From a virus (Duplodnaviria; Caudoviricetes), in IMG/VR virus record IMGVR_UViG_3300035208_002115: a stretch of 64,000 nucleotides of DNA, one strand, 5' to 3'. The first letter of the stretch is position 1. Each line of letters opens with the position of its first letter. Below the pieces are notes generated by a model. The model worked only from the letters and a program-made list of their open reading frames with translations. It made no database searches and was not told where the DNA came from. A program made the position numbers and the translations under genes. Of the stretch, positions 354-39,017 are shown piece by piece.

Positions 354-533
354 TTATTCGTTATTTTGTGCGAAGTTAAACAATTCTATCAATTTCATTT
401 CCCTAACCACATCAATAGTTACTAAATTATTGTCGATATCTTCCATCAACCTTCTATCACTTTCTAATTTAAATTCTTCCGTTTCACCCACTAATCTATA
501 ATATTGTACTAAGTCGGTTTTACCATTTACCAT
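354..533 (-). CDS. 59-aa protein with near-C-terminal R-x-x-K-L-x-x-L-F tag (VVREMKLIELFNF)
   Basis: Manual translation MVNGKTDLVQYY...REMKLIELFNFAQNNE; below the ORF-track cutoff; TAATATATA upstream at 556-565. Confidence 0.7.
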   Translation of the reverse strand: MVNGKTDLVQYYRLVGETEEFKLESDRRLMEDIDNNLVTIDVVREMKLIELFNFAQNNE

Positions 534-586
534 TAAACCTTTAATATTTTTCTTGTATATATTAGAAAAATATATTCCCGTCCCGA

Positions 587-596
587 TTAATATATA
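587..596 (+). promoter_or_regulatory. TTAATATATA putative late-type promoter
   Basis: Motif recurring shortly upstream of start codons; divergent near-copy at 556-565 on the minus strand. Confidence 0.5.
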
Positions 597-620
597 AATA
601 AAAATATAAACATTAAAAAA

Positions 621-1037
621 ATGACTGCTGAACTCTCTAATATTCTTTCAACTGCTAAAATATATGACTTGATGTTTAATACCGAGACAAAAACTGACAA
701 TGGCTGGAAGTTATCCATCCAAGGTAAATCATTGGATGATGTTATATTTTTATATGATAGATTAAGCGATTATTTATTTGATAATAAAATACCTTTTAAA
801 ATAGCGACCAATAAGCGAATAATTTCCAGTAATAAAGAACAGTCACAAAAGGTGATGACTATTTATGTACCAGATTACATTGATGTTTATGAATTTGCCG
901 AAACAATATATTCTAAAATTATAGATTACAAAGGCTGGTACAATATTAAAACACCCACTAATTATGAATTTTACGCTGGCGGTGTTTATATCCGAAATGA
1001 TAGGGATGAATATGGAGATTACATCCCTGCTAAATAA
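621..1037 (+). CDS. Stand-alone protein resembling the phosphoSer/Thr-lyase domain (LanKC N-terminus/OspF-like)
   Basis: Motif order GWKLSI...IPFK...QKVMTIY...GVYIR; family call tentative. Confidence 0.45.
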   Translation: MTAELSNILSTAKIYDLMFNTETKTDNGWKLSIQGKSLDDVIFLYDRLSDYLFDNKIPFKIATNKRIISSNKEQSQKVMTIYVPDYIDVYEFAETIYSKIIDYKGWYNIKTPTNYEFYAGGVYIRNDRDEYGDYIPAK

Positions 1038-1061
1038 ACTTTTTAATTATTTCATTATATA
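1036..1061 (+). promoter_or_regulatory. AAAC-N18-TATA putative early/middle promoter
   Basis: Same spacing at 7 intergenic sites in the window. Confidence 0.55.
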
Positions 1062-1086
1062 AACATTCAAAGATTATAGTTATAAA

Positions 1087-1446
1087 ATGTTTACATCATA
1101 TCACTTTGGGCATAAAATTTATTCTAAATCAATAAAAATAAATGAGAACACAATCAAAAATTCTCCTTGGAGATTTGTCGATACAAATGAACTTATTGTT
1201 GAAAGTAAACGAAAATGTCCTAAATGTGATAAAGAACCTACATCTGAAGGACACGACCCGTGTATTGCTAATTTACCTGATGTGAAATATGCATGTTGTG
1301 GACACGGCATTCCAAATGATGCATACATTTATTTTGAATCTGGAGAAATATACAGATTTCCGACATCGGAAGAATTTCACAATTTTATAGACAAATACGA
1401 AATAAAAAAATATGGCATACTTCGACTTCCTAATAGGGGAAAATAA
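1087..1446 (+). CDS. Cys/His-rich phage hypothetical protein (putative Zn-binding)
   Basis: CPKC...GHDPC...ACCGHG. Confidence 0.7.
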   Translation: MFTSYHFGHKIYSKSIKINENTIKNSPWRFVDTNELIVESKRKCPKCDKEPTSEGHDPCIANLPDVKYACCGHGIPNDAYIYFESGEIYRFPTSEEFHNFIDKYEIKKYGILRLPNRGK

Positions 1447-1762
1447 AGGAATCCCAAAACCAGACATGGAATATATTTACATGATGGATATGGTATGGAC
1501 ACCTAATGTACTTGGTGACAAGCCAATTAAGATTGGTACTATCATGGTAGATGTTATTCAACTTGAAAATCGAAGTTACGAATTTACTTGTAAAGAAACT
1601 GGTGAACGATTAAGAAGCAATTATGCTTGGTCTTTAGCTGAGAACACTCCTGAAAATGTAAAAAGAATTAAATTTTATAACAAAGAATATATTAAATTCA
1701 AAAAACACGAAAAGAAAATAAAATATTTACGTAACGATATATTTACATTAGAACCTCATTAA
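1412..1762 (+). CDS. Hypothetical protein
   Basis: 116-aa ORF overlapping the upstream gene end. Confidence 0.65.
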   Translation: MAYFDFLIGENKGIPKPDMEYIYMMDMVWTPNVLGDKPIKIGTIMVDVIQLENRSYEFTCKETGERLRSNYAWSLAENTPENVKRIKFYNKEYIKFKKHEKKIKYLRNDIFTLEPH

Positions 1763-2256
1763 AAATTCTGTTCTTCTTTCTTTCTTTTAAATTCTTTAAG
1801 ATATTCTTCTCTACTTAATCTTTGGTCAACAAAATATGATTTACCAGAATTTTTTTCATCATCGGCTGTCCATCGATTGGATTCTTGGGTTTTAAGTTTT
1901 TCCAATTCTTCAGCGTATTGAATTTCATGTTCTTCAATCTTTTTTAGAAGACCAGATAAATAAGATTTAAATGGTGTACCGTCATCTTTATACTCGACAT
2001 TATACTCTTTATTATTGTAATAAATAATTAACATATCATCTTTTATAACCACATCAGTATAAAACATAAGAGAGCCGATATTACCTACTTTGTGTATAAG
2101 TCTATTTTTTTGAAGATGATATCTTTTTACAAACTCATCGTGAATTTCGAGTGTAGAACTCTTTTTATTTAGAACTGAACTACCTAAATCTAATTTAAAT
2201 ATATCAATAGTTCTAATTTTCCTTAACATAGTGTTATTAGAAATAATACTAAACAT
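1759..2256 (-). CDS. Hypothetical protein
   Basis: 165-aa ORF, co-oriented with 2279-2812. Confidence 0.7.
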   Translation of the reverse strand: MFSIISNNTMLRKIRTIDIFKLDLGSSVLNKKSSTLEIHDEFVKRYHLQKNRLIHKVGNIGSLMFYTDVVIKDDMLIIYYNNKEYNVEYKDDGTPFKSYLSGLLKKIEEHEIQYAEELEKLKTQESNRWTADDEKNSGKSYFVDQRLSREEYLKEFKRKKEEQNF

Positions 2257-2278
2257 AATAAATTATTTGTTTTTAATA

Positions 2279-2863: not shown

Positions 2864-3871
2864 TTATTTGGTAGTATCAGTTTTCAGTTCGGATAATATA
2901 TCATATTTTCCTTTTTTATACAAAGCTTCCCACCCAACATTTATATTCTCAATTGAATAAATAAATGTACATTTAGAACAAAAAACATTTCTCGGATGAG
3001 ATATTTTTTTAAATGAATTATAATTTTTAGAATTTATACAAACATCTTCAAAAGAATCATTTAATAAATTCCCATAAATAACTGGGTTAACATAACAACA
3101 AGGATGAACATCACCCTTATAAGTAATAAACAAATCTTTTTCTACTGAAGGACATTGTGTCAAATTATTTACTGTTGTTGCATTAGCATCAGGTATACAA
3201 ATTCCACCCACAACATCTGGTATTACAATATACAATCCAGTATTTTCATAGAGTTTTTTAATTTTATTAACTTCTTCTAAAAAATAATCATTTATAGAAT
3301 CAAGCTCTTGATGTAATTCTGCATTGTATTTATCATCTCCTTGGGCGTAATTTAAAATCATATTCATATTATTTTCTTTAAAATATGTCGCAATTTCAAA
3401 TATTCGGTGTATATTTTTTGTTTGTAATGTGAATATGCCAGTTGGTCTTCTTTTTATACTTGATAAATCTTTTACATTATTATTTATTATTGATAAATTA
3501 GCACCTCTTATCTCTTTCATTTCTTGAAAATCTGGTGAATCTATTGAAACCCATAATTGTACATCATATTCTATGAACTTTTTTATAATCGCATTATTCA
3601 CAAATGATAAATTTGTAGCAAGCGATATTTCTAATTGTGGGTAACTGATTTTTGTATATTCTAATATTTCAACGAAATCTGGGTGTATAGTACTCTCGCC
3701 TCTTGAATTAAGTCGTATAACTTTTGTATAAGGGGCTACTTTATCTAATATAGTCGCATAATCTTCACACGAAATAAATTTGGTTTTATCGACTTTACCA
3801 CCGAAACTACATATACCACATGAAAGGTTACATGTGTTGGATAATTCTATACCAATGAATTCTTTTAACAT
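2864..3871 (-). CDS. Radical SAM protein with SPASM/Twitch domain
   Basis: CNLSCGIC (CxxxCxxC), RGESTIHP, C-terminal C...GDVHPCC...GNL...CSKC. Confidence 0.9.
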   Translation of the reverse strand: MLKEFIGIELSNTCNLSCGICSFGGKVDKTKFISCEDYATILDKVAPYTKVIRLNSRGESTIHPDFVEILEYTKISYPQLEISLATNLSFVNNAIIKKFIEYDVQLWVSIDSPDFQEMKEIRGANLSIINNNVKDLSSIKRRPTGIFTLQTKNIHRIFEIATYFKENNMNMILNYAQGDDKYNAELHQELDSINDYFLEEVNKIKKLYENTGLYIVIPDVVGGICIPDANATTVNNLTQCPSVEKDLFITYKGDVHPCCYVNPVIYGNLLNDSFEDVCINSKNYNSFKKISHPRNVFCSKCTFIYSIENINVGWEALYKKGKYDILSELKTDTTK

Positions 3872-3877
3872 AAAAAA

Positions 3878-4894
3878 TTATTTTAAAGTTGCGTTTTCTT
3901 TTCTAACACTATGACTTATACCACATGGTTTTGTACATAAAGACATTTCTTGTCTTAAATCATTGTTATTATTCCAGAAATCAGTTAAATCACCATATTT
4001 CCTAATATAAGTTCCTATATAGGGTATTGAAAAACAAAGCCTTGCAGCACCATGCATATCAATCATTATATTTCTATCATAAGAATTACATATAGGCATT
4101 TTCGTTTTATTATCACACCACCCTTTAGTATTATTTGATTCGTTTACACTGCTATGGTACGTTTCTACAACATTCAACCATTTCGGGTTTAAATTAAGAT
4201 TATATTTTTCGTTGCATTGCTTAATTATCATAAGAAGTTCGTTATAATTTTTAATAATGTTTTCCTTATAGAATATATCATTATCTCTAATTGAATCAGT
4301 TGGAGCGAAAGTGGGTTGTAAAAAATTTAATTTTAACTTATCTGCACCAAGTTCATTCAATACTAAATCATACATAGCATCCAACTCACGATAATTGAGT
4401 TCACAAACAACAGCCATTACATAAATAGGATTTGTTTTATCTAATTTTTTTCTGGCAGCAACTAAAAGTTTTATCGCATTAATAACTAAATCATAAGAAC
4501 CTATAAACCCTCTGGAGTAATCGTGTATTTCTGGTATATGACTATTTAATGATAATGTTATTTGTGTTGCTCCATCCAAAATCATTCTTTCGGCAGACTT
4601 TTCATCTGTAATTTTTGTTCCGTTTATAACGGAAAAACATTCAAGGCCAAGTTTTCTACATTGTATTGTAATTGGAAAATATCGTTCTGGATTTAATAAA
4701 GATTCACCGCCACAAATCACCACTGTTCCATTTGGATTGAGATTTGAAAATTCTTTTATAATTAAACTTCTCTGTTCGATAGTAATGTGTGTTGGTAATA
4801 TTGTTTCTTTTCTAACCCAATATTTACAATGTTTACATTTTAAATTACATTGATAATTAATATCTAAAAAAAGAAATTGTGGTGGTTTGTACAT
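3878..4894 (-). CDS. Radical SAM protein with C-terminal Cys cluster
   Basis: CNLKCKHC, ICGGESLL, C-terminal C...LC...CTKPC. Confidence 0.9.
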   Translation of the reverse strand: MYKPPQFLFLDINYQCNLKCKHCKYWVRKETILPTHITIEQRSLIIKEFSNLNPNGTVVICGGESLLNPERYFPITIQCRKLGLECFSVINGTKITDEKSAERMILDGATQITLSLNSHIPEIHDYSRGFIGSYDLVINAIKLLVAARKKLDKTNPIYVMAVVCELNYRELDAMYDLVLNELGADKLKLNFLQPTFAPTDSIRDNDIFYKENIIKNYNELLMIIKQCNEKYNLNLNPKWLNVVETYHSSVNESNNTKGWCDNKTKMPICNSYDRNIMIDMHGAARLCFSIPYIGTYIRKYGDLTDFWNNNNDLRQEMSLCTKPCGISHSVRKENATLK

Positions 4895-5026: not shown

Positions 5027-5821
5027 ATGTCTATTATAAGCTTTTCAGAATTCAACCTTAATGAAGGTCTTACCAAAATAAAAGTTGGTGACACAATTGT
5101 GGTAACTAAAGATGATACATCGGATGAACCAAAACGTACATTAAAAGTTGGTTCTGAATATGTTGTTAAAGCACTTGATTATTTAAGTGGGTGGTTAAGA
5201 CTTGAAGGTGAAAAATATCTTCACAATCCAGACAATTTCAAAAAAGTTAAATCAGAAAAAAAAGTGAATGAAGATTCATCAACAACAGGAACTGTTGGTT
5301 CTGGAACAGCCGTTGGTGGTGGTGCAACTGGGTCATTTACATCTGCTGCTGGTGTATCAGTAAGTGGTGGTGATTCTGGTACTGCATATGCAACTAATTC
5401 TATGAAAGGTATGGGTGCTATAAAAAGCGCACAACCATCCAAAACACCGGGCGATGTTGCTGGTTCAACCGAAGGTAGTGGTGATATTGGTTCTGTTTTA
5501 GGAACATTCACCAAACAACCTGCTGGTGGTGGATATAAAAAAAGAAAGAAAAAAGGAGAAAAAGTGGAAAATCAAATAAAAAATATGTATGTCGTTAAAT
5601 TCAGTGAATTTGATGGTGTTAAAAACATAAAAGAAAATGCTTATATTCCACCTAAAAAAGTGAAATGTCAAGAATGTGGTGAAGAAGTAGAAGATGATTT
5701 TGTTACTATGTTGGGTCATGTACAGAATAAACATTGGGCGCAACCTAATGCAAGATTCGTTGATGCTGAACCAAGAGAAATGGTGAAACAATTTTTTCAT
5801 GAAATACCCGAAAAAAAATAG
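5027..5821 (+). CDS. Multi-segment putative internal head protein (CTS-like N-terminus, SH3-like segment, G/S/T-rich segment, C2H2-like Zn finger)
   Basis: MSIISFSEFNLNE; internal VVKFSEF...IKE; CQEC...HVQNKH. Confidence 0.6.
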   Translation: MSIISFSEFNLNEGLTKIKVGDTIVVTKDDTSDEPKRTLKVGSEYVVKALDYLSGWLRLEGEKYLHNPDNFKKVKSEKKVNEDSSTTGTVGSGTAVGGGATGSFTSAAGVSVSGGDSGTAYATNSMKGMGAIKSAQPSKTPGDVAGSTEGSGDIGSVLGTFTKQPAGGGYKKRKKKGEKVENQIKNMYVVKFSEFDGVKNIKENAYIPPKKVKCQECGEEVEDDFVTMLGHVQNKHWAQPNARFVDAEPREMVKQFFHEIPEKK

Positions 5822-5826
5822 ATTCT

Positions 5827-10838: not shown

Positions 10839-11159
10839 ATGCTTAAAACTAAAAATGACGAATATTATGTGTTGTGTTTCAAAAACGAATATAATGAAAC
10901 TCAATATATTAAATCGTATAATTATAAGAACATTAACAGACCCATTTCAAATCATAAGTTACAATATAAAACTTATGTATATTTGACTAAGAGTTTGGAA
11001 GAAGCAAAAATTTGGAAGAAAAAGAATGGTGCTTTTAGAATGTGTAAAAATGTAATAGCACCAACACTGAATATTCCATTTGAATCTATAAGTATAAGTA
11101 GTGTATCAAAACAAAAGATTCGAAGGGCTAAGATTCTTGAACTTGGATTATTGGATTAA
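10839..11159 (+). CDS. Hypothetical protein with C-terminal tag (IRRAKILELGLLD)
   Basis: ORF and C-terminal motif. Confidence 0.7.
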   Translation: MLKTKNDEYYVLCFKNEYNETQYIKSYNYKNINRPISNHKLQYKTYVYLTKSLEEAKIWKKKNGAFRMCKNVIAPTLNIPFESISISSVSKQKIRRAKILELGLLD

Positions 11160-13796: not shown

Positions 13797-13982
13797 ATGT
13801 CAAAAATTAAAAAAGTTGATGAAGAATTCATCCCAATGTGGAAAAAAGAACTTGAAAAAGTTAAACGTTGTCCACAACGTCAGGATTCTATGACCGACCA
13901 GTTAAAAGATTTGTGGCAGATTGCTAATAAATTTGGTTTTTATGATGCAGCCGACCATATCAGAACCATTTGTAATTTTTAA
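13797..13982 (+). CDS. Hypothetical protein
   Basis: 61-aa ORF (QLKDLWQIANKFGFYDAAD). Confidence 0.6.
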   Translation: MSKIKKVDEEFIPMWKKELEKVKRCPQRQDSMTDQLKDLWQIANKFGFYDAADHIRTICNF

Positions 13983-13986
13983 TTAT

Positions 13987-14316
13987 ATGAAAGATATATT
14001 TAACAAAGAAATGGAAATTGGACATATAGTTGCAGTTAGATATGTCTGGAATAGTTATGTTGGTGTGCTTAGAACAAATGGCTTATCTATGCGAGAATTA
14101 GCACAAAAACACTGGGCAATGGCAGATTGTCACCCAATTGAATCAAAGAATACACATCAGATTTTAGGACATATTGATGTAAATCATTCAGATTTTAATA
14201 AAGATGTAAATGAGTGGGCATATTCAGAAGATGAAAATGTCAAATGTCCTGTTGATATCCATATTTACAAAACAAAAGAAGAAATCAGAAAACTTAAAAT
14301 AGAATCTCTATGGTAA
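13987..14316 (+). CDS. Hypothetical protein with C-terminal tag (EEIRKLKIESLW)
   Basis: In-frame ATG at 13987 (MKDIFNKE...) within ORF 13921-14316. Confidence 0.7.
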   Translation: MKDIFNKEMEIGHIVAVRYVWNSYVGVLRTNGLSMRELAQKHWAMADCHPIESKNTHQILGHIDVNHSDFNKDVNEWAYSEDENVKCPVDIHIYKTKEEIRKLKIESLW

Positions 14317-20787: not shown

Positions 20788-22638
20788 TTATTTTTTATTT
20801 TTTAAAATATCTATTTCTTCTTTCAATTCTTTTATACTTTTTATCAAAAATGGTATAATTTGTTCATAATTAACAGTTTTATACATTTCATCTTCAGGTT
20901 TTCCCAACAAATTATGTTCTTTAACTATTTCTGGTAAAACTTTTTCAACATCTTGTGCTATTAAACCATAAACAGTTCCTATTGATGATTTCTTAGGGTC
21001 TTTCCATGTAAAAGATACTGGATTTAATTGGTCAATAATTGATAAACCACTGTCAATATTTTTAACATTTTCTTTTAATCTATTATCTGAAGGAACAGTA
21101 CTTGAATATGCAATAATATCACTTTCAGCGTGGAATACCCCTGCACTTGTAAATCTAAAATAATCAGTACTGGATGCAAAAGTTATACCTATATATCCAG
21201 ATGCTGCAAATAAACCATATCCAGTATAACTGGCAAATGAAAAAGATGGTGCTGATGAAGAACCATTAGCCCCTATAAATTTAGTGCTATATGTATTCGA
21301 AAATAATCTTGTACTACTACCCAATGCATATGTATTTGTGCTTTCTGGTGTAATAGTACCGCCTAATGATATTGCATCTAAAGTAGATGTGCCATTTACT
21401 GTTAAGCCAGCAAATGTTGGTGAACTTGATGTTAAAACCGCTTGGTTTAAATAAGTCGCAAATTGATTACCATCCCATAAATCAGCGTCCAGACCAGAAC
21501 TGCTACCATCATTAGCTTCTGTCCATATTTTGTACCAAGAACTTGCTGATGGTGAAGCACCACCACTTATAGTTCTCGTATACAAATACCCAGCATTTGT
21601 GTAATCAGAAATTATCTGTGTACTATAATTATATGTTGATGTGTTAGAAGTATGTGCCATTGTTAAACACCAAAACCAGTTAGCATTGGGTGTCCAAGCA
21701 GCCCCATTAACTTCCCAAAACCCAGATTTATATTGAGGTAATTCTAATAAGTTTTGAGTAGCATTTGCAGTATTACTACCACTACCATTACTACCATATA
21801 TAAATTTAGATGGTGCAACTGATAAGTTATTTATAGAAGTTGATAATGAACTATCGGCTGAACTTACAGTTGAATTAGTTGTAGAAATAGCCGTTGATAA
21901 TGATGTGTCTGCACTGCTTCTTGTTGAGTTTGCAGTAGAAATAGCCGTTGATAGTGATGTATCGACAGAGCCTCTTGTTGAAATTTCACTTGATAAAGCT
22001 GTTGATAGTGAGGTTACACCAGTGACATTGATATTAGCGATAGCAGTACTTAGTGATGTATCACCAGTATCGACATAATTTCTATGAACAATATCATTAC
22101 TACCTGTTATAGCATAAGTAGAATTATATGTCATTTTACCATAAACCGTTCCACCAGATATATTTAAGTAGTAGCCATCTGCGTTCAAGGTTGTCTGATT
22201 TTTCCAAGTACCACCAGTATACACTAATATGTCACCTGCTGATAATGATGTTATCGTGACATCTGTTAATCCAGACAAATAACCACCACTATTAACATTA
22301 ATTGCAGTTGCTAAAGATGAATCTGCCGAACTTCTTGTCGAGTTTGCAGTGGAAATGGCTGTTGATAAAGATGTGTCTGCACCACTCCTTGTTGAGTTTG
22401 CAGTAGATATAGCTGTTGAGAGTGATGTATCAGAAGATGACCTTACTGATTCCTCAGTTGATATTGTAGTTGACAATGTTAATCCAACATAAGATACAAC
22501 CGCACCCTCAGTAGTTAATGCTGTACTATATGTACCAGACCCCTGTGTATCTATTTCACCTTCAAGTCTTATTAAGTCAATCGTTGGGGAAGTATATGTA
22601 TCACCTGATAATTGTATGCTATTGGTTATTAAACCCAT
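20788..22638 (-). CDS. Tail fibre protein with SLST repeats and C-terminal peptidase S74 intramolecular chaperone
   Basis: SDNRLKENV...GLIAQDVE...VNYEQIIPFLIKSIKEL; GLDADLWDG; DTSLSTAIS repeats. Confidence 0.88.
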   Translation of the reverse strand: MGLITNSIQLSGDTYTSPTIDLIRLEGEIDTQGSGTYSTALTTEGAVVSYVGLTLSTTISTEESVRSSSDTSLSTAISTANSTRSGADTSLSTAISTANSTRSSADSSLATAINVNSGGYLSGLTDVTITSLSAGDILVYTGGTWKNQTTLNADGYYLNISGGTVYGKMTYNSTYAITGSNDIVHRNYVDTGDTSLSTAIANINVTGVTSLSTALSSEISTRGSVDTSLSTAISTANSTRSSADTSLSTAISTTNSTVSSADSSLSTSINNLSVAPSKFIYGSNGSGSNTANATQNLLELPQYKSGFWEVNGAAWTPNANWFWCLTMAHTSNTSTYNYSTQIISDYTNAGYLYTRTISGGASPSASSWYKIWTEANDGSSSGLDADLWDGNQFATYLNQAVLTSSSPTFAGLTVNGTSTLDAISLGGTITPESTNTYALGSSTRLFSNTYSTKFIGANGSSSAPSFSFASYTGYGLFAASGYIGITFASSTDYFRFTSAGVFHAESDIIAYSSTVPSDNRLKENVKNIDSGLSIIDQLNPVSFTWKDPKKSSIGTVYGLIAQDVEKVLPEIVKEHNLLGKPEDEMYKTVNYEQIIPFLIKSIKELKEEIDILKNKK

Positions 22639-26193: not shown

Positions 26194-28464
26194 TTAATAC
26201 GTTATAATATAATTTATGTATCTTTTAGCGTTATTAGTTGAACTAATTTTTGCATTTTCCATCCAATATATTTTCTCTTTTTGATTCCAAGGGGTATTAG
26301 ACCCAGAGCCTGTATAATCCAGACCATTTGATAAGAAATTGACCTGTGCTTCAGTTAAGTCCCACGCATTACCACCATATGTACCCAAACTACCAAGTTG
26401 TTCTGTTGTACCCGATACAGTGTCACCTATACCTGAAATATTAATAGAAAAATTAACATAAGTGAAATATTTTTTATTAACAAACAAATAATCTATAAAG
26501 GCATTAGAACCAGTCACACCAGTATTACCATTTATATAAAAATTGCTAATACCACTATATAAAGTGACACCCGACAAAGTTCCTTGTATATTACAATTAT
26601 CTACTCTAAAATCGAAAGCTCTGTTTATTAAATTAAAATCCGTATTAATATTCGATGATATTTCTGAATTTGAAGCAATTAAAGTATAAACATTATAATG
26701 TTTTAATGCACCTGATAAGCCAGTATTATCTAAAAATAAATTTGTTGTACCACTAATAATCCATGATGTAGTATCACCAGATAAATTTGGGTTGTTCCTT
26801 ATATCTAAGGATGTAGTAACCCCTGTCCCACCGTACCATGAAGAAATATCACAATTGAGAGAACAATTGCGAATTGCGAAACTCTGAATTTTATGAGCTG
26901 GAAAATTTCCCATATCACTTGATATGGGTGTATATGCTAAATCTAAAGCTTGCATATTTTTATTTATAATGAAATTATCAATATTACCCGTCATACCACT
27001 TAAATAACCTAATGTTAAATAAATTAAATTATTTGTATTGAATACACCTTCATCAAAATCTATATAAATATCATTCATACTTAAATAAAAGTATATTAGA
27101 GATGTTGGTAAAACCGTACCTGTAATATTACCATATAAATTATTATTATATAACTGCAAATTAGTTATTGCTGAATTAAAAGTTAAACCAGATATATAAC
27201 CAGTGATATTTAAATTCCCATAAAGAAATAGTGAGGTGGTAGCCGATGGTATTGTAAAGTCATGTATATTACCTGTTAATTTATTGCTTGATAAATTGAT
27301 GGAGAAACTATTTGGTAATGTTATATTATTAATGTCATCTATTAAATTACCATTATTTGTTAATGAAAAGTATGTAACACCAGTTGGAAATGTGATTCCA
27401 GTCACTGATGTTAAAGAGGTCATATTATTAATATTGAATGAATTTAGATTTGTATTTGAATAATTAAGTGGCACTCGTGTAACTTGATATAAACCTGATA
27501 TTTGGATATCTTTTAATGTATCTGGTAAGACCCAATTAGATAAATCACCACTTATTATACCATTTGATGAATTAGAATCATGTATTAATATTGATGTACA
27601 TTTTGTATCACTAAAATCCCAGTTTGTAAGGTCTCCTGTTATATAATAACCACTTATAAATGTAAAAAGAGTTAACCCAGTACTAAATATCCAGTTTGTC
27701 ACATCACCAGTTATTAGATTGGAAGTAATTGGTTTGTTATAATAGAAATAATTCAATTTTGATACATCAATTGTAGATAAATTACCTGTTACCAAACTAC
27801 TTCCATTCAAAAAAAACGATTCAAGATTTACATTATTAAATAAGTTGTTTATGTTACAGTTCAAAGTATTAACATTATTGAGTGATATTTTTCTTAAATT
27901 GCTAAATGGTATATTAGATACATTACCTGTAACTGGACAAGAATTCAGCGATAAATCTTCTAAATTTACTATATTGTTTATAGTATTTATATTCCCAGTT
28001 ATTGTACTATCATATATGTGAAAATATTTTAATCTACTTGGAAATGTTTTATAACTTATATTATTACTAAATGAACTATGTTGGAATTCTAATGTTTCCA
28101 AGTTCGGGAATTGATTCATAAAATCAAACAAATCACCAGTATCGTAATTACTATCTGATGTTGTTTTAAATGTTATTACAGAATTTAAATTACCAAATGT
28201 GTAAACTTTTTTTGAACTGCTTTCACTGGTAGGTGATATCAATTGGTCAAAGTTTGTAACATTTGATGTATAAACTATTTTCACCATCCCAGTAGGTTTT
28301 TCAAAATAAAATTTAAATGGATTAGTAGCTGTAACACCACTTAGCGTGATTGTATACCTGTAATAATATGATTGGGTTGAAGCCAAATAAGAATTTATTA
28401 CAGTTGATTTAAGTATATACCCATCCTTATTTTTTAATATAGTATCATCCTTATTCTTAATCAT
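26194..28464 (-). CDS. Leucine-rich-repeat protein (putative virion/adhesin)
   Basis: Repeated LxxLxLxxxx[IV]TG[ND][IL]xx units; within fibre operon. Confidence 0.75.
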   Translation of the reverse strand: MIKNKDDTILKNKDGYILKSTVINSYLASTQSYYYRYTITLSGVTATNPFKFYFEKPTGMVKIVYTSNVTNFDQLISPTSESSSKKVYTFGNLNSVITFKTTSDSNYDTGDLFDFMNQFPNLETLEFQHSSFSNNISYKTFPSRLKYFHIYDSTITGNINTINNIVNLEDLSLNSCPVTGNVSNIPFSNLRKISLNNVNTLNCNINNLFNNVNLESFFLNGSSLVTGNLSTIDVSKLNYFYYNKPITSNLITGDVTNWIFSTGLTLFTFISGYYITGDLTNWDFSDTKCTSILIHDSNSSNGIISGDLSNWVLPDTLKDIQISGLYQVTRVPLNYSNTNLNSFNINNMTSLTSVTGITFPTGVTYFSLTNNGNLIDDINNITLPNSFSINLSSNKLTGNIHDFTIPSATTSLFLYGNLNITGYISGLTFNSAITNLQLYNNNLYGNITGTVLPTSLIYFYLSMNDIYIDFDEGVFNTNNLIYLTLGYLSGMTGNIDNFIINKNMQALDLAYTPISSDMGNFPAHKIQSFAIRNCSLNCDISSWYGGTGVTTSLDIRNNPNLSGDTTSWIISGTTNLFLDNTGLSGALKHYNVYTLIASNSEISSNINTDFNLINRAFDFRVDNCNIQGTLSGVTLYSGISNFYINGNTGVTGSNAFIDYLFVNKKYFTYVNFSINISGIGDTVSGTTEQLGSLGTYGGNAWDLTEAQVNFLSNGLDYTGSGSNTPWNQKEKIYWMENAKISSTNNAKRYINYIITY

Positions 28465-28480: not shown

Positions 28481-31400
28481 TTAAAAGATATATCCCTCTA
28501 CTAATAAATGCGCTGATAATGGATTTACATTCGTAGATGCCGAGGACACCCTAAAATATACAACACTACCAGATGACTGTGTTACTGCATTTTGAGTTAC
28601 TTCTAACTCATATGTTTCATTCGTTAACACATCGTTAATAACCAATGAAGGTGATAAATTATTATAAGAAGAATTATTATTACCAACACTTATAGTAAAT
28701 GCTGTTGGTGAAGCGTCATTCAATATTATTAATTTAAATCTATTAAACAATACTCTTTTACCTGTTGGAATAGTTAATATAGCAGTATTACCAATAGATT
28801 TTAGATTAATATTTTGAACGAATATAAAATTTTGCAAAGTTGTAAATACATCAAAATCCGTTTTAAATACAGTATGAGTTGGGTAAGCATATTTTTGACC
28901 AATATAAGTTATTCCACTTTCGGTACTAACCCATTCATCAACTACATCTATTTCTTGTACAATGTTATTTGTCGAACCAATCCATGTTTTACCACTTGTT
29001 AATGGTCTATTGTATGATTCTTTAACCCAATAATTACCAGTTTTATTATATCTAAGAAATACATCTTCAAGACTTAAATTAACATTTATAGCAATACTTC
29101 CACTATCGTAGAAATTATCAAAAGTATAGTTAAATGTTCCATCATTTTGTGGTTCGGGTCTATACCACTGGCTATCTGCTAAACCACTTGGAACTGACGA
29201 ATTTTTAGTAATATTACCCAAAAATCCCCCACCAGCACCAGTTAACCCAGAGTTAACCCATTGCGAACCATTATAAACTAAATATTGTCCACCTGACAAA
29301 GATGATAACGTAACATCAGTTAAACTATCAAGATTAGTAGAAATAGATATACCAGAATTAACCCATTGTGAACCATTATAAGTCAATATTTGAGTTGAAG
29401 ACGGTGTTGTTATTGTAACGTCTGATAATCCATCTAAATTCAAGTTTGTTGATAAAACACCACTACCATTAATAGACAATCCAGTGCCAACCATTATAGC
29501 ACCTAATGAAACTGCACTGGCCATCGGTAAGTCACCTGGGCTGATGGTTGTTGAAGCGTTTTTATATGTGATATTAGCCCACTGAACAGTTAAATTAACA
29601 TTTGTCCACGTTGCAGAATTAATATAAATTGTTGTATTTACAGTGTTTGATAATCTCATATTTACCGTAACCGATACTGTTTCACCAGAGGTCACTGAAA
29701 TAGTTTTATATGGTGTTATTTCATTTCCAGTCACAGTTGTACCTAAATTAACTTCGGCTGTTGTAGTACCAGTATTAGTGATATATACCATACCAAGTGT
29801 CTGTCCTGATACTAATATACCTAAATCTCTGTTTGAAGTGACACCAGTGTAAGAATATAGGTTAGCTAATGTAGAATTTGTAATATAATTGTTATCAATA
29901 ATAAATTGGCCATTACCGTTTATTAAAATACCATCCGAACCCGTAATATAAGACGCAGAATTAAAAATGTGTGTGTGCGAATTAGTTGACACAGAATTTG
30001 TAGAACCAGTATTTATATCAGATGGTGTACCAAGAGTTACTGAACCAGATGATGTAATAGTTGAAAAATTCATACCATTACCTGCTGAAATAGAAGTCAC
30101 TGAACCAGTAGACGCAGTACCATATGTTATTTGACCTGTTGATGTGTTATAAAATAAAACATTTGATTGGCTCGATGATGGTAATCCAGATATGTAAGTA
30201 TTACCTGTAACAGCCAACGAACCATTCACATTTAAACGTGAATTAACAAAAGTCAAATTAGAGCTTGTGTATATTTGTTTTGTATCGTTATTCCAAAATG
30301 TGATACCACTTGAAATAGGTGAGTCTTCTCTTGTAGCAACAGCTTGTAACGAACCTATTTCACCAACCCTGAATGTATCATAAGTTTCATTGAATATAAA
30401 TTGGTAATTTGTTAATGAACCTCTTTCAACTTCGATACCAGCTATAATCGAAGTGACACCAGAGCCAGTTTCACCGCTATTTATCAAAATCAAATTATCA
30501 GAAACCTGCATATTTTGGGTGTTAATAGTAACAGTAGTACCAGAAACATATAAATTACCCAGAATATTTAGATTACCATTTAATAACATTTGACTCCCGT
30601 CAAAAGTTAAATTAGATTCAGCAACCATCCCTTTTTGTGTACCATCAGATGTTAGTAACCTATCATCACCATAATTTGAAATGACCGTTCCACCAGAAGC
30701 ACTAACTAAACTGTCAATATAATATTTATTTACAATATCATTAGTATTAGTGAATGACAACCCAGTAGCTGAATACCTCATAATATCACCGATAGATATT
30801 TTAGCACCAGAATCAACAGTTGTGTAAATATAAACTGAACCTAATTGTTTATCCTCTATGTATGTAGCACCTGGTATAGAATCCACGTATGAACCACTGT
30901 TTATTTTAACATTACCAGCTATTACCCCACCCACTCGTGATAGTCCACCTTCAAGTATTAAATCACCGCCTGAATTATCGCTCACACCACCTGATATAAT
31001 TGTAGTACCACCTGATAAAACACCATCACCAGCTCTGAATACAGCAGCACCACCAATACTATTACCGCCACCAGCAATAATATTAATCCATCCCCCATCA
31101 CCAGTTGTATTCTCAGCTCTCATCATAATACTATCACCATGATTAGCTGTCCTTGGCGTGTCATCCCCAAATAATGATATAAATGGGCCAATTAATAATG
31201 CTCCATAATTTTCAACATCAAAATTATAATATGATTGCAATGCTTGTATACTTCTACTATCTGGTGTATCATAAAATTTTATTTTACTTGAACCACTTAA
31301 ACTAACAATAGAATTATTAAATGATAACGTATTTGTAGTTGAATTAAATGTCATACCAGTGTTGGCATTTATGCCATTTGCCGTACCATCAGATGTTAAT

Positions 31401-33175
31401 ATTCTATTAAGTCCATAATTTGTTATAGGAGTACCACCGCTAACAACCGATATAGCTGTGCTTAAAGATGTATCAGCAGAACTTCTTGTAGAAATTTCAG
31501 ATGAAATAGCAGATGATAGTGAGGTGTCTGCACTTTCTCTTATTGATATCTCTGACGAAATAGCTGTCGATAGTGAAGTATTAGCAGATGTCATACCAGA
31601 AGTATACCCAGTCACAAAACCTTTATCCACTAAAGACCTATTTGTATAATTGTTTGAAAAATCAGTAATATATGTTAAACCTGAGAAACCAGTAACACCA
31701 CTTACAGTAATGTCTGATGTGTTTGACAATATAGTATTACTATTATAACCATTTATATAAATGCTTATGTTTTTTGCTGAATCAAACAAACCATTTGATA
31801 ATATTGCTGATGCTACATAGGTAGTAGGCACACCAGTTATAGACTGAACTAATACTTTATAGTTTCCATATAATGTTTCAGTGCCGACACCCAAAAATGT
31901 AGTTACATTATTTAAATAAATAACAGAAGACGGGGTGAATGTAACGTAACTATTATTTCTAATAGTGATAGCTGTTGTACAGTTATCAAAAACAACAGAA
32001 CTATTTGCTTGGTTAAATTCGAAATTACCTTGAAAACATTCGATACCAGTTGCCCAATTGTACAAATATAAACCAAATGCTGATGTGGGTGGTATATAAA
32101 AACCTTGTGCTGATAAAGACATTGCGATACCAGTTTTAGTACCACTCTTTCTTATCGTTGTATTCCTAAATTGAACTTTAGTATTAGCAGGTGTAAAAGA
32201 TGATGATGACAATACAAAAGCACAGTTTGTGAAATTATTCCTATAACTTGATTGTACAATACTACCTTGTGTAGCAGTAATTTTAGAATTTTGAAAATCT
32301 AATATACCATTATTAATAAATCTAATAGCACCAGAAGGGTTAGTAATATCAATATTGTTGAATATTAAATTCTGGACATATGGAGATGCTATATTTAATG
32401 TAAAATTACCATTCGCAATATTAAACGTTGTAGTATTATGAATTATAGATGTACATGAAGTCGCACCGACAACTGAATTAATCGTAGTAGCACTATTATA
32501 TGCAATTGGAAAAGCTGTTGTCCCATTATACATGAAATAATCTTGGTATTGGTTCACAGTGAACGTTGAACCAGTCACGTTATAAATATAAGGGGTTGAA
32601 CTGGCTGTTATCGTTAATCCTGAAACATCAGTCACATATTTACCACTGACAGTTATACCAGCATTTCGACCCAAATACATTCTTTTCGTGTATTTATCGG
32701 TTTCTATCATATCAACTGTATATGTTCCAGCAGCTACATCAATAGTAATAGTTACACCAGAATTTATTATCGGTCTAATAGATTTGATAGCTTTCAAATA
32801 AGTAGCATATGTATTACCAGATGAACCATCACCAGTTGTATCAGAACCTGCGGTTGAAATATAAATAGTTCTTGAAACTGTTTCTTCGGCTGTTAACCCA
32901 GAAACAATTGTTTCTAAAGAGGAATCCCCCGAAATTCTATTTGAAATTTCTGAGGATATTGCAGTTGATAATGATGTATCAGCAGAACCTCTTGTTGATA
33001 TTTCAGTTGAAATTGCTGTTGATAATGATGTGACTCCAGTTGTTGAACCAGTTAATAAACTATCAACATATATTTTAGTAGCAGCATCACCCGAATTAAT
33101 AGGGGTAGTTAAACTCAAATGTGCTTGCAATATTGTACTATCCTTTATTTGTTTACCATGAAGCTTTTTAGCCAT
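28481..33175 (-). CDS. Large (1564 aa) mosaic tail fibre/spike protein
   Basis: AATKIYVD, SLST repeats, IYIS..GSD.TGDGS..N.YAT beta-helix entry, DNLILIN...AGIEVERG, LxxLxDVT...YNGSQWVN x2. Confidence 0.85.
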   Translation of the reverse strand: MAKKLHGKQIKDSTILQAHLSLTTPINSGDAATKIYVDSLLTGSTTGVTSLSTAISTEISTRGSADTSLSTAISSEISNRISGDSSLETIVSGLTAEETVSRTIYISTAGSDTTGDGSSGNTYATYLKAIKSIRPIINSGVTITIDVAAGTYTVDMIETDKYTKRMYLGRNAGITVSGKYVTDVSGLTITASSTPYIYNVTGSTFTVNQYQDYFMYNGTTAFPIAYNSATTINSVVGATSCTSIIHNTTTFNIANGNFTLNIASPYVQNLIFNNIDITNPSGAIRFINNGILDFQNSKITATQGSIVQSSYRNNFTNCAFVLSSSSFTPANTKVQFRNTTIRKSGTKTGIAMSLSAQGFYIPPTSAFGLYLYNWATGIECFQGNFEFNQANSSVVFDNCTTAITIRNNSYVTFTPSSVIYLNNVTTFLGVGTETLYGNYKVLVQSITGVPTTYVASAILSNGLFDSAKNISIYINGYNSNTILSNTSDITVSGVTGFSGLTYITDFSNNYTNRSLVDKGFVTGYTSGMTSANTSLSTAISSEISIRESADTSLSSAISSEISTRSSADTSLSTAISVVSGGTPITNYGLNRILTSDGTANGINANTGMTFNSTTNTLSFNNSIVSLSGSSKIKFYDTPDSRSIQALQSYYNFDVENYGALLIGPFISLFGDDTPRTANHGDSIMMRAENTTGDGGWINIIAGGGNSIGGAAVFRAGDGVLSGGTTIISGGVSDNSGGDLILEGGLSRVGGVIAGNVKINSGSYVDSIPGATYIEDKQLGSVYIYTTVDSGAKISIGDIMRYSATGLSFTNTNDIVNKYYIDSLVSASGGTVISNYGDDRLLTSDGTQKGMVAESNLTFDGSQMLLNGNLNILGNLYVSGTTVTINTQNMQVSDNLILINSGETGSGVTSIIAGIEVERGSLTNYQFIFNETYDTFRVGEIGSLQAVATREDSPISSGITFWNNDTKQIYTSSNLTFVNSRLNVNGSLAVTGNTYISGLPSSSQSNVLFYNTSTGQITYGTASTGSVTSISAGNGMNFSTITSSGSVTLGTPSDINTGSTNSVSTNSHTHIFNSASYITGSDGILINGNGQFIIDNNYITNSTLANLYSYTGVTSNRDLGILVSGQTLGMVYITNTGTTTAEVNLGTTVTGNEITPYKTISVTSGETVSVTVNMRLSNTVNTTIYINSATWTNVNLTVQWANITYKNASTTISPGDLPMASAVSLGAIMVGTGLSINGSGVLSTNLNLDGLSDVTITTPSSTQILTYNGSQWVNSGISISTNLDSLTDVTLSSLSGGQYLVYNGSQWVNSGLTGAGGGFLGNITKNSSVPSGLADSQWYRPEPQNDGTFNYTFDNFYDSGSIAINVNLSLEDVFLRYNKTGNYWVKESYNRPLTSGKTWIGSTNNIVQEIDVVDEWVSTESGITYIGQKYAYPTHTVFKTDFDVFTTLQNFIFVQNINLKSIGNTAILTIPTGKRVLFNRFKLIILNDASPTAFTISVGNNNSSYNNLSPSLVINDVLTNETYELEVTQNAVTQSSGSVVYFRVSSASTNVNPLSAHLLVEGYIF

Positions 33176-34302: not shown

Positions 34303-34749
34303 TTAATACAAACCTAACGTTTTAATTTTCATCAATCTAATTTGACGCTTGAATTCTGGGTTATTAACATCTATATCATCACCGTATAATTTAAAATTCT
34401 TTTTAAAAGTTTTAAATTTAACATACTGCTCACTCGAAGAACGGAAATTAATAAGTGTCATTTTATTTTCACTTTCATTATAATAATAATAAGAAACTAA
34501 TGCATATTTTTCTTTATTTTCTTTTACAACTTCCCTGTTTCTCCGAGGGTCAAAGTAACTAACAGAGTTGAAATCTAATGGTGTATCTATATCCCTTAAA
34601 TAACAAAAAATCAAACCATATTTTTTTCTTATACTATTAGCATAACCTATCATAGAGCCAGTGTATGTATAATATAAACCACTTTGTACACCGTTTACTT
34701 TACTATTATTCGAATATGTATATATGAACGAACTATCTGTCGAGTACAT
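34303..34749 (-). CDS. Hypothetical protein with C-terminal tag (QIRLMKIKTLGLY)
   Basis: ORF and C-terminal motif. Confidence 0.7.
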   Translation of the reverse strand: MYSTDSSFIYTYSNNSKVNGVQSGLYYTYTGSMIGYANSIRKKYGLIFCYLRDIDTPLDFNSVSYFDPRRNREVVKENKEKYALVSYYYYNESENKMTLINFRSSSEQYVKFKTFKKNFKLYGDDIDVNNPEFKRQIRLMKIKTLGLY

Positions 34750-36615: not shown

Positions 36616-36636
36616 TTCATATTATTATTTTTTATG

Positions 36637-36987
36637 TTATTTAGTTATTTCATCACCAAATATTTCATCTAATTTTAATTTTCTCAACCCTTTTATATCA
36701 AGTTCTTCTATTTTAGAATTTATTTCACATATTAATTCTGGTTGATTATTATATACCCCCAGTTTTTTAAGTGTTTCATTTATGGAATTAATTTTACTTA
36801 CTAATCCATTATTAAAATCTTGTTTATTCAATTTTTTAAATATATCATTGAATTCTTTTTGAAGTTTCATGAGAGGACTTTCATTAATTTCTTTTTGAAG
36901 TTTCATGAGAGGACTTTCATTAAAAATGTTGTTTAATTTGCTATAAATTTCATTTATATTTATAACACTTAAATCTTTTTTATTCAT
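36637..36987 (-). CDS. Hypothetical protein with C-terminal tag (LRKLKLDEIFG)
   Basis: ORF; internal 12-aa duplication. Confidence 0.7.
   Translation of the reverse strand: MNKKDLSVININEIYSKLNNIFNESPLMKLQKEINESPLMKLQKEFNDIFKKLNKQDFNNGLVSKINSINETLKKLGVYNNQPELICEINSKIEELDIKGLRKLKLDEIFGDEITK
36853..36923. repeat. Exact 35-nt direct repeat, 36-nt period (NESPLMKLQKE x2)
   Basis: Copies at 36853-36887 and 36889-36923. Confidence 0.9.
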
Positions 36988-36997
36988 TTTTATTTAA

Positions 36998-37150
36998 TTA
37001 TTTTTCAATCTCTTTAGAGAATTTATCTAAACATCTTTTACAAATAACTATTACACATTTATTCATCCAATCAATATGAGCGCAATGTTCTTTTTTATCA
37101 CAAAAATCACATTCATATTTATCACTATCAACAAATAATAATTCATTCAT
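36998..37150 (-). CDS. 50-aa Zn-finger protein (CDFC...CKRC)
   Basis: Manual translation MNELLFVDSDKYECDFC...; promoter motif just upstream. Confidence 0.65.
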   Translation of the reverse strand: MNELLFVDSDKYECDFCDKKEHCAHIDWMNKCVIVICKRCLDKFSKEIEK

Positions 37151-37156
37151 ATTCTA

Positions 37157-37182
37157 TATAGTTATTTTAATAAGTTCTGTTT
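37157..37182 (-). promoter_or_regulatory. AAAC-N18-TATA putative promoter
   Basis: Conserved spacing; upstream of 37150. Confidence 0.55.
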
Positions 37183-37390
37183 AAAAAATTTTGAGACTTT
37201 TTATTTTTTCAGCCCGTTCTATACTATTAATTTTTCTTTTAATGTAAAATATAATTTCTTGGTCATTCATATCATAACCCACACCATATACATTAATTTT
37301 AGAACCTGATTGTATATAATACTCAAAAAAATTCAAATGCTTTTTCAATTCTTCCTTATCATTACAATTTATAAAATCAAAATCATTCAT
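37181..37390 (-). CDS. Small protein with C-terminal tag (IERAEKIKSL)
   Basis: ORF; resembles neighbour 37387-37620. Confidence 0.7.
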   Translation of the reverse strand: MNDFDFINCNDKEELKKHLNFFEYYIQSGSKINVYGVGYDMNDQEIIFYIKRKINSIERAEKIKSLKIF

Positions 37391-37620
37391 AAATTCTCAT
37401 TTTCAAATATATTTTTTAATTTCTTTTTTCGTTCCAATCTCAATATTTTAATTTTAATATACCTAATACATTCTCCACAATCTAAAGTAATGTTATCTGA
37501 AACTGCGAAACTATCCACATTAATCCGTTTCATCATTTCGTATAAATTAAGTTGCTTTTTTAATAATTCAACGTTATCAGTTTCAAAAAAATTTAAATCT
37601 ATATTATCATCTACATACAT
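37387..37620 (-). CDS. Small protein with C-terminal tag (LERKKKLKNIF)
   Basis: ORF and motif. Confidence 0.7.
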   Translation of the reverse strand: MYVDDNIDLNFFETDNVELLKKQLNLYEMMKRINVDSFAVSDNITLDCGECIRYIKIKILRLERKKKLKNIFENENL

Positions 37621-37803
37621 TTAATCTAAAAAAATTTTTTCTATTTTTCTTTTTCTAATTTCATTTAATTGTTTAGATTCATTTTCTAATTGCAGAATAC
37701 GTTCTTCTAATTCGGCAATTTTAGCTCTTAAATTCTCAACATATTCAATAGAATTTGGTTTAGTGTACTGATTTGTATAATCAGATGAATATTCTTCGTT
37801 CAT
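37621..37803 (-). CDS. Small coiled-coil protein with C-terminal tag (IRKRKIEKIF)
   Basis: ORF and motif. Confidence 0.7.
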   Translation of the reverse strand: MNEEYSSDYTNQYTKPNSIEYVENLRAKIAELEERILQLENESKQLNEIRKRKIEKIFLD

Positions 37804-37805
37804 AT

Positions 37806-38057
37806 TTAGTCTTCTGTAAATATTTGTTCTATTTTATCTTTTCTAACTTTAGAAATTGCAGGGTTTTCGAGTAAATTTATTCTTTCTTTTAATAAAGCAA
37901 CTTGACCCATTAAATATTTAAGCTCAGTTTCTAATTGTGAAACGTATTCATAATTAGTATAAGTAGTATTAGAATCACGAACGTAAACACCCGGGCTGAT
38001 AAACAATTTACCATTCTCTCCATCGAGGTGATTAATAATTAAATTTGAAGACTCCAT
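37806..38057 (-). CDS. Small coiled-coil protein with C-terminal tag (VRKDKIEQIF)
   Basis: Likely start ATG 38057 (MESSN) within ORF 37806-38117. Confidence 0.65.
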   Translation of the reverse strand: MESSNLIINHLDGENGKLFISPGVYVRDSNTTYTNYEYVSQLETELKYLMGQVALLKERINLLENPAISKVRKDKIEQIFTED

Positions 38058-38073
38058 AAATAATATTTTTATT

Positions 38074-38589
38074 TTAATTTTTCTTATGAAAAATTCCATT
38101 CTCATCTGGTTGTTCACTCCAGTTTCTTTTATCCACTTTGTCTAATTTATTTAAAGCAAAATGTAATAGTTTGTTAAATGAAACATCATCACCATAACGA
38201 ACTCGGAAAGCGTCTAAAAGAAGAAGTACACAATCTGCCCATTCTTCTTCTTCATTGTCTTTTCCAATGGCTTCTGATAATTCTTGAACTTCCAATTTTA
38301 AATGATTAAGCATTCCAGACGGGTCAGTCCGTTTAAAATGTTTTTCAGAAACTCTTATAATTTCTTCTTTTAAATAATCTAACATGTTTGTATTATATTT
38401 TTTTTCAAACCCAAAAATTTCTTCCAGTTTAGCTTTTCTTAATTTTGAAGGAGATTCTAATAATTCGATTCGTTTTTCTAAATCATCTATGGCATCTTGT
38501 AAATTATTTTTAATATGAGTAATACCATTACCAGCATTTACACTACCACAATTTGCATTAACTAAAACTTTACTAATTAATTTCCCCAT
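38074..38589 (-). CDS. Tag-bearing N-terminal module fused to a DUF550/MazG-like dNTP pyrophosphohydrolase
   Basis: LRKAKLEEIFG then HLKLEVQEL...EEWADCVLLLLDA...KRNW. Confidence 0.7.
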   Translation of the reverse strand: MGKLISKVLVNANCGSVNAGNGITHIKNNLQDAIDDLEKRIELLESPSKLRKAKLEEIFGFEKKYNTNMLDYLKEEIIRVSEKHFKRTDPSGMLNHLKLEVQELSEAIGKDNEEEEWADCVLLLLDAFRVRYGDDVSFNKLLHFALNKLDKVDKRNWSEQPDENGIFHKKN

Positions 38590-38590
38590 A

Positions 38591-38803
38591 TTATTTTTTT
38601 ATATTTTCACCGAAAATATCATCAAGTTTCTTTTTCCTGATATATTTTTTATCATTAATAAGAAGTATATCTTCGATAGTATTATTTATTTGTGTTATCG
38701 TTTCAAACATCTCATTTAAGTTTTTATGCAAACATTTGTGGGATTCACGTTTATTCTTTCTTCTCAGAATCCATTTTGATAGTATTCCCAAAAATTTCTT
38801 CAA
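38591..38803 (-). CDS. Small protein with C-terminal tag (IRKKKLDDIFG)
   Basis: ORF and motif. Confidence 0.65.
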   Translation of the reverse strand: MKKFLGILSKWILRRKNKRESHKCLHKNLNEMFETITQINNTIEDILLINDKKYIRKKKLDDIFGENIKK

Positions 38804-39017
38804 TTTTTTCTTTTCTATTATTATTCAATTCTAAAATTTTTTTATATGGATATTCTTGTGCAGCCCAACCATTTTGAGAATCCTCTACACCATACCAAAC
38901 CACACAAGTTGCCCTATCTGGTTCATAATATAATCCATTAAATGGACAATTTATATTTATTATAATACCATTTCCATCAGGAGTTTTAACTTTCTGGTAT
39001 ATGTGTAAATGCGACAT
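38751..39017 (-). CDS. Small SH3-like protein with near-C-terminal tag (NRKEKIEEIFG)
   Basis: KVKTPDGNGII beta pattern plus motif. Confidence 0.65.
   Translation of the reverse strand: MSHLHIYQKVKTPDGNGIIININCPFNGLYYEPDRATCVVWYGVEDSQNGWAAQEYPYKKILELNNNRKEKIEEIFGNTIKMDSEKKE

Follow-up and report, generated by a model that had tools for sequence, protein, structure and literature searches.

Several systems are known in which one short peptide is carried by proteins that are otherwise unrelated. The internal proteins of phage T4 share a short capsid targeting sequence, which is N-terminal and cleaved off. The cargo-loading peptides of encapsulins are C-terminal and bind an HK97-fold shell. Docking motifs for the N-domains of AAA+ proteins (p97 VIM/VBM, Vps4 MIT-MIM) and the tails of ClpX adaptors and degrons are short, often terminal, basic-hydrophobic helices by which a single machine recognizes numerous unrelated cofactors or substrates. 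The T4 clamp motif and the PCNA-interacting protein (PIP) box are likewise short portable helices on unrelated clients, and clamp motifs work both terminally and internally. Here we describe a peptide, referred to as the tag, from a virus assigned to the Caudoviricetes (Duplodnaviria; IMG/VR record IMGVR_UViG_3300035208_002115). The window, i.e. the whole stretch of 64,000 nucleotides presented, comprises bases 253,370-317,369 of a single 675,678-bp IMG/VR virus contig (G000).

The tag is about 12 residues long and has the consensus h-R-K-x-K-[IL]-[EK]-E-[IL]-[FL]-[GD]-[DE] (h, hydrophobic; x, any residue), in which we count the Arg as position 0. It is carried by about 165-180 proteins, roughly one-seventh of all G000 proteins. 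Like the T-even capsid targeting sequence and the encapsulin peptides, it is one short peptide on unrelated, fast-changing cargo. However, it resembles neither of these in sequence, its genes lean towards early-type promoters, and the scale is tens of times larger. It resembles the AAA+ cofactor motifs in general build, and G000 encodes MoxR and two classic-clade AAA proteins, but there is no sequence match, the distribution of the candidate machines among relatives does not clearly follow that of the tag, and no free C-terminus is needed. With the T4 clamp motif it shares the h-x-x-h-F-[G/D] spacing, a preceding Lys and terminal or internal placement. In contrast, the Arg at position 0 (R0) and the Lys at position 3 (K3) have no counterpart there, position 6 is polar and not Phe, and most of the about 165 clients are without DNA function.

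The C-terminal enrichment of the tag was demonstrated by comparison with shuffled proteins. In the whole of G000 (about 1,208 genes) 165 genes have the loose pattern R..K[IL]..[IL] in the last 20 residues of their products, as compared with a mean of 2.9 and a maximum of 7 in 200 per-protein shuffles, which is an enrichment of about 57-fold. At internal sites it occurs 26 times (17.6 expected). The strict pattern R[KR].K[IL]..[IL]F was found at 52 C-terminal sites (0.03 expected), and six-frame translation of the contig yielded 63 strict matches, nearly all of them 0-17 residues ahead of a stop codon. An iterated position-weight matrix, with its threshold set on shuffled proteins, detected 179 sites, of which 165 are C-terminal. 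The distance from position 8 (F8) to the stop codon is usually 0-12 residues with a mode of 2, and the median length of the tagged proteins is 116 amino acids (aa).

The earlier note on the window had proposed a portable amphipathic-helix label that docks 12 mostly unrelated small proteins onto one partner. All 12 peptides were found at their places and score above the shuffle-based threshold of the weight matrix (Table 1). Eight of them indeed lie within 36.6-39.0 kb, in consecutive minus-strand genes (36637-39017). The scale of 12 proteins proved far too low, given the genome-wide number and the occurrence of the core motif in many other huge phages. Two gene starts need revision: the peptide assigned to a gene starting at 13987 is present, but the ATG at 13942 is the more likely start, and the tagged gene at 38591-38803 may instead begin at an ATG giving 38591-38710. 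A 104-aa open reading frame (ORF) on the plus strand (window 37310-37624) overlaps two tagged genes of the minus strand in antisense orientation. This ORF, which is probably spurious, took the place of the real genes in the greedy gene calling.

Table 1. Tag sites in the window (positions are those of the window; strand in brackets).
Peptide	Tag position	Gene	Product	Score	Remarks
VVREMKLIELF	378-404	354..533 (-)	59 aa	14.2	Weak; 7 residues ahead of stop; G001 ortholog has canonical RKIKLEKIF
IRRAKILELG	11121-11147	10839..11159 (+)	106 aa	17.9	G001/G019 orthologs 61-63% identical, tagged; TAnnTTTG upstream
IRKLKIESLW	14287-14313	13942..14316 (+)	124 aa	22.1	Reaches stop; G019 ortholog 90% identical, tagged
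IRLMKIKTLG	34312-34338	34303..34749 (-)	148 aa	16.5	G001 ortholog ends in IRMIKLKKIL
LRKLKLDEIFG	36658-36684	36637..36987 (-)	116 aa	28.0	
ERAEKIKSL	37190-37216	37181..37390 (-)	69 aa	13.9	Weak; G019 ortholog has IERIEKIKSL
ERKKKLKNIF	37405-37431	37387..37620 (-)	77 aa	24.5	
IRKRKIEKIF	37630-37656	37621..37803 (-)	60 aa, coiled-coil-like	26.1	G001/G019 orthologs have IRKRKIEEIF
VRKDKIEQIF	37818-37844	37806..38105 (-)	About 99 aa	21.6	G001 ortholog 42% identical, yet MRKDKIEKIF
LRKAKLEEIFG	38413-38439	38074..38589 (-)	171 aa, MazG-like dATP/dGTP pyrophosphohydrolase		Internal, in N-terminal extension; Pfam PF04447 at residues 78-161
IRKKKLDDIFG	38612-38638	38591..38803 (-)	39-70 aa	24.4	Start uncertain
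NRKEKIEEIFG	38790-38816	38751..39017 (-)	88 aa, small beta-rich body, then long terminal helix	25.3	
ERQILLKELF	188-214 (-)				Additional site, atypical

The earlier note had named two findings that would speak against a label, a lack of C-terminal enrichment over shuffled proteins and a full-length homology uniting the proteins as one family. The enrichment has been given above. The second finding was absent as well: after removal of the tails, the bodies of 165 tagged proteins fall into 158 BLAST clusters (E < 1e-3), no Pfam family is common to them, and a PHROG match exists for just 7 of 150. This rules out one diverged family, and because the tag is enriched at C-termini on bodies that are not one family, the claim of a portable label on diverse accessory proteins holds; docking onto one partner, as also proposed in that note, is an inference. 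Few tagged proteins have a recognized function. Single Pfam matches include a homolog of the CBASS inhibitor Acb3 (G000:636116-636829) and an ankyrin protein, and the MazG-like enzyme of Table 1 belongs to the same small group. Transmembrane-like segments are present in 4.8% of the tagged proteins as compared with 11.5% of the untagged small ones. Nearly all tagged proteins are soluble, fast-evolving orphans.

It is the peptide that is under selection. In the tag, Arg is encoded by all six of its codons and Leu by both of its codon families, roughly at their genome-wide usage, and Ile and Leu alternate; there is therefore no conserved nucleotide signal, and a DNA-level element is ruled out. 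The identity of the two basic residues is strict. In 122 tails selected by the [IL]..[IL]F anchor alone, position 0 is Arg in 76 and position 3 is Lys in 74. At position 0, Lys is outside the eight commonest residues, and at position 3 the same holds for Arg, against the background of a Lys-rich genome. Such strictness argues for a specific protein partner rather than for generic charge.

Relatives were found via the capsid protein and a back-translated tag pattern. One of them, G001 (640 kb, capsid protein 94% identical to that of G000), has 106 tagged genes. Tagged genes are also numerous in G019 (422 kb; 44), in a 136-kb fragment with 78% capsid-protein identity (G004; 24) and in a 98-kb fragment with 89-90% (G009; 13), and the 33-kb contig G020 has four; the capsid protein was not found in the contigs G019 and G020. 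G003 (243 kb, capsid-protein identity 60%) has a single tagged gene and G005 (130 kb, 58%) has none. Between G000 and G001 the median identity is 58% for tagged, 75% for untagged small and 82% for untagged large proteins. The tag is nevertheless kept in 89 of 104 G001 homologs of tagged G000 proteins, and in these 89 pairs identity is 78% in the tag vs 55% in the bodies. The tag is thus retained while the bodies diverge. The orthologs of the weaker members in the window (genes at 354, 10839, 34303 and 37181) are tagged too.

The core pattern extends to more distant phages. In 80 IMG/VR loci around homologs of the vWA-peptidase of G000 (see below), R..K[IL]..[IL] occurs at 176 tail and 38 internal sites, with mostly Glu or Asp at position 1 and mostly Leu at position 8. 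Whole-record pattern counts are above those of the controls in at least 14 of 23 records bearing the vWA-peptidase. Other shared endings were observed in two relatives. In G005 (IMGVR_UViG_3300042261_001186, loci L117-L123) a different portable tail, YKEE[DN]IEW[LVF]-stop (e.g. L121:19278-L122:1460), is present on 20 small proteins of 47-179 aa, the bodies of which are mostly unrelated. In the first 400 kb of G036 (597 kb; IMGVR_UViG_3300020045_008999, loci L364-L383), 89 proteins end in QRHFEIWNDDLSLNxxNFxxLLxEIxDGL(x)-stop. These still form one BLAST cluster after removal of the last 36 residues, and their ending suggests that one family has expanded greatly, or that they share a longer C-terminal domain, rather than a short tag.

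The position of the tag is usually, but not strictly, C-terminal. The earlier note had the tag nearly always at the C-terminus, which is true for most sites (165 tail vs 26 internal sites) but not as a strict functional need. The site that it had called internal is so, as the MazG-like domain comes after the tag, and this fusion, with R-K-x-K-[IL]-E-E-I-F in the N-terminal extension, is kept in G000, G001 and G019. Another strong internal copy is present in a 412-aa protein; two strong copies are more than 100 residues away from the stop codon. Structures were predicted with AlphaFold2 (AF2) for two of the proteins. The model of the 88-aa protein (gene 38751..39017) has strands at residues 17-57 and a helix at 58-85 which holds the tag. 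In a three-phage alignment R68, K69, E70, K71, E74, I75 and F76 of this protein are invariant. Its predicted local distance difference test (pLDDT) score, 64 on average, is below 50 from residue 72, a drop which would fit an unpacked helix, although the model is weak. For the 171-aa MazG-like protein (mean pLDDT 44) a separate short helix is predicted at residues 49-59 with low confidence, and the model is too poor to be used beyond secondary structure.

Two motifs are enriched in intergenic gaps, AATATATA and TAnnTTTG. The former is located about 30 nt upstream of start codons, with 128 intergenic occurrences in G000 vs 14 expected; TATTTTTG, which is of the TAnnTTTG type, is also enriched (46 vs 7). 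TAnnTTTG, which we take to be the form of Bacteroidota host promoters, is found upstream of the MoxR/vWA pair and of the gene for the C-terminal part of the polymerase. AATATATA is found upstream of the capsid operon, the tail fibre and terminase genes and the large structural genes of the window (16574, 20788-22638, 23837-26143, 26194-28464 and 28481-33175). Judged by these neighbours it looks like a phage late promoter marking structural genes. With promoter classes defined by motifs alone, tagged genes have 100 TAnnTTTG vs 39 AATATATA and untagged genes 378 vs 339 (odds ratio 0.43, p = 2.5e-5). The eight-gene cluster of the window is without a motif of its own and lies downstream of a AATATATA site.

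The tag is a real, selected and portable peptide, and we favour the reading, with a probability of about 0.65, that it serves as a trans-acting docking helix for one common partner. As such a short linear motif it would present R0, K3, I/L4, I/L7 and F/L8, the constrained residues, on one face of the helix. This face could fit a groove that is lined by an acidic rim, contains a hydrophobic pocket and belongs to a common, abundant partner, so that many accessory proteins would be tethered to one place or machine. Both the exposure of the helix and the single partner we infer. As to the purpose, we rank first that accessory proteins, most of them early, are recruited to a hub encoded by the phage, virion loading second and delivery to an AAA+ machine or protease third.

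Several points weigh against a docking helix with one partner. No tag-reading protein was found among the AAA+, clamp and phyletic-filter candidates examined. The filter retained G000 proteins with counterparts in G001 and G019 but none in G003, G005 or the first 400 kb of G036, which left 157 candidates. Two of these, followed across 22 records, did not track the tag, and Pfam analysis of the ten most conserved ones revealed no hub-like protein. About 165 different ligands for one site would be unusual unless the partner is very abundant. The exposed helix is weakly supported, since the AF2 models are of low confidence. The set of 1,208 genes results from crude longest-ORF, greedy calling, so that counts based on it are approximate, and this caller missed two true tagged genes in the window.

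If one reader serves one-seventh of the proteome of this megaphage, it would make hundreds of orphan proteins accessible to experiment at one point. The destinations, the timing and the anti-defence roles of the tagged orphans could then be addressed, and the reader would show how giant phages organize large accessory gene sets. For practical purposes, the tag helps to recognize real small genes in genomes of uncultured phages, and it could be a portable handle to deliver or co-localize proteins in phage infection. Full-text literature searches found no description of the tag. MoxR-vWA and BCS1 of jumbo phages are treated by Iyer et al. (2021), and no tag is mentioned in the part of that paper considered here.

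A broader reading, which we offer tentatively, is that huge phages run a proteome-wide addressing system in which a lineage-specific helix is added to newly arising accessory genes and is read by one dedicated reader. The endings seen in the relatives would then be lineage variants, with RKxK[IL]xx[IL]F in the present phage, R[DE]xK[IL]xx[IL]L in other huge phages and YKEE[DN]IEW[LVF]-stop in the 130-kb relative. In this case the reader would concentrate, protect, deliver or time one-seventh of the proteome. Tag and reader would co-evolve, and the system would be to a virus what targeting signals are to organelles or compartments.

Among the rival explanations, loading into the virion is the strongest, though we consider it unlikely. 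The tag would dock cargo inside the procapsid, so that anti-defence and takeover proteins are packaged and injected with the DNA. This follows the logic of the T4 internal proteins, and G000 encodes a gp23-type capsid protein. A homolog of an anti-CBASS protein carries the tag, tagged mini-genes flank the capsid gene in G000 and adjoin it in a close relative (L052), and some tagged proteins contain fragments of the capsid N-arm, e.g. one with 63% identity over 27 residues. The sequence [IL]4-x-E6, present in about half of the tags, resembles the prohead-protease site of T4, which is L/I-x-E; however, E6 is not invariant. The tag is also C-terminal or internal, not N-terminal like the T4 sequence. 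Late expression together with the head genes is not what the motifs indicate: the bias of the tagged genes to TAnnTTTG and away from the AATATATA of the capsid, tail-fibre and terminase genes is a lean to host-type, early promoters and so argues against virion loading as the main role. Furthermore, 165 cargo species are far above known virions, and we know of no virion with anywhere near that number.

The tagged protein with 63% identity is 95 aa long and matches capsid residues 105-131. Pieces of the capsid N-terminus recur in small proteins, namely at window 5027-5821 (+), G000:223918-224205 and G000:200182-200529. The first of these (264 aa) is 60% identical over 35 residues to capsid residues 76-110.

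Somewhat less probable still is that the tag is a recruitment signal or degron for a phage AAA+ protein, which would remodel or remove the tagged proteins. One candidate is MoxR (G000:187718-189010) together with a DUF2201 metallopeptidase-vWA protein (184817-186520) in which HExxH and DxSxS are intact. Both genes are downstream of host-type promoters, and both proteins are present in the tag-rich G001 and G019 and not detected in the tag-free G003 and G005. However, nearly every relative with the vWA protein has a MoxR of 52-63% identity, including G036 (98% complete) and G002/G029, which have no tag excess. The MoxR/vWA module must therefore have a tag-independent role, and co-occurrence with the tag does not single it out as the reader. 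G005 has a different portable tail, and neither MoxR nor the vWA-peptidase is detectable there. The other candidate is a 394-aa classic-clade AAA protein (G000:164883-166067). Its gene is followed by that of the largest and best-conserved tagged protein (286 aa), the tag of which survives in G004 despite a body identity of 31%. This AAA protein is a member of a widespread family; it has no match at E <= 1e-10 in the tag-rich G040 but a 42%-identical match in the tag-free G002. A degron of the ssrA type needs a free C-terminus, whereas the tag is usually followed by 0-12 variable residues and has a conserved internal copy.

A BCS1-like AAA protein (G000:632267-633565) is ruled out as the reader because it is missing in the tag-rich G001. 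Between the genes for the vWA-peptidase and MoxR lies a gene for a 171-aa protein (G000:186546-187061), of which 114 residues match part of the vWA-peptidases of G001 and G019 with 41-42% identity. From this match it looks like a partial duplicate of the vWA-peptidase. In distant phages, large proteins, a few with the tag among them, are encoded upstream of the vWA-peptidase, and no known domains were found in them. The vWA-peptidase of these distant phages also has a 251-aa neighbour; a conserved 251-aa protein was considered as its equivalent and was rejected for want of similarity.

Less likely again is a sliding-clamp motif similar to the PIP box, which would tether the small proteins to the phage clamp and hence to replicating or transcribed phage DNA. 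In T4, an amphipathic helix formed by the gp43 tail EKASLDFLFG or by the ligase loop GLDFLFD binds gp45 (PMC6212786). Positions 4, 7, 8 and 9 of the tag reproduce the h-x-x-h-F core followed by Gly or Asp of LDFLFG and LDFLFD, and RKLKLDEIFG and RKKKLDDIFG match K1, L4, D5, h7, F8 and G9 of the gp43 motif. The gp43-type family-B polymerase of G000 has the C-terminal sequence LGFFSSIFDF. This tail shares the h-x-x-I-F-D spacing, its positions 5 and 6 are polar, and G001 and G019 have the same or nearly the same tail. G000 also encodes a gp44-type clamp loader. On the other hand, R0 and K3, the most constrained residues of the tag, are absent from this tail as well as from known clamp motifs, no other replication protein has a polymerase-like tail, and most tagged proteins are without a DNA-related domain. 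No clamp gene was found in G000 with Pfam PF02768, PF09116 and PF02916 or by PHROG scans of the neighbours in the replication module. Nor does the tail tag of G005 resemble the polymerase tail of that phage, so that no co-variation is seen. A 228-aa neighbour of the clamp loader was ruled out as the clamp, its homologs carrying a SPOR domain.

That the tag is a membrane-targeting amphipathic helix of the MinD/FtsA type is very improbable. Its terminal position, basic and hydrophobic composition and predicted helix would suit such a role, but the lack of exchange between Arg and Lys at R0 and K3 is at odds with generic lipid binding, acidic residues predominate at positions 5 and 6, and the hydrophobic face consists of only three residues. 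The least probable explanations, a nascent peptide acting in cis on termination or coupling, a DNA or RNA signal at gene ends, or one diverged family, would draw on the modal distance of 2 residues to the stop codon and on tight gene packing, but they are largely refuted by tag-stop distances of 0 to 20 residues, by the strong copies far from any stop, and by the free synonymous codons and unrelated bodies described above.

Some features of the contig do not concern the tag directly. The contig has a CheckV completeness of 98% and a GC content of 27%, standard-code ORFs cover 93% of it, and it encodes its own sigma factor. Besides the capsid protein and clamp loader, the gp43-type DNA polymerase is a T4-type trait; it is encoded in two genes about 120 kb apart (G000:539510-540991 (+) and 659109-660566 (-)). 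A short piece matching the polymerase domain is contained in a 77-aa tagged protein (G000:586527-586760 (-)). In the window, two radical-SAM-like genes coding for 335 and 338 aa are neighbours at 2864-4894 (-). A 660-aa sugar epimerase/dehydratase (G000:633578-635560; L034:6581-8560) contains a LAGLIDADG-like segment in its middle, which may represent an intein or a homing-endonuclease insertion.

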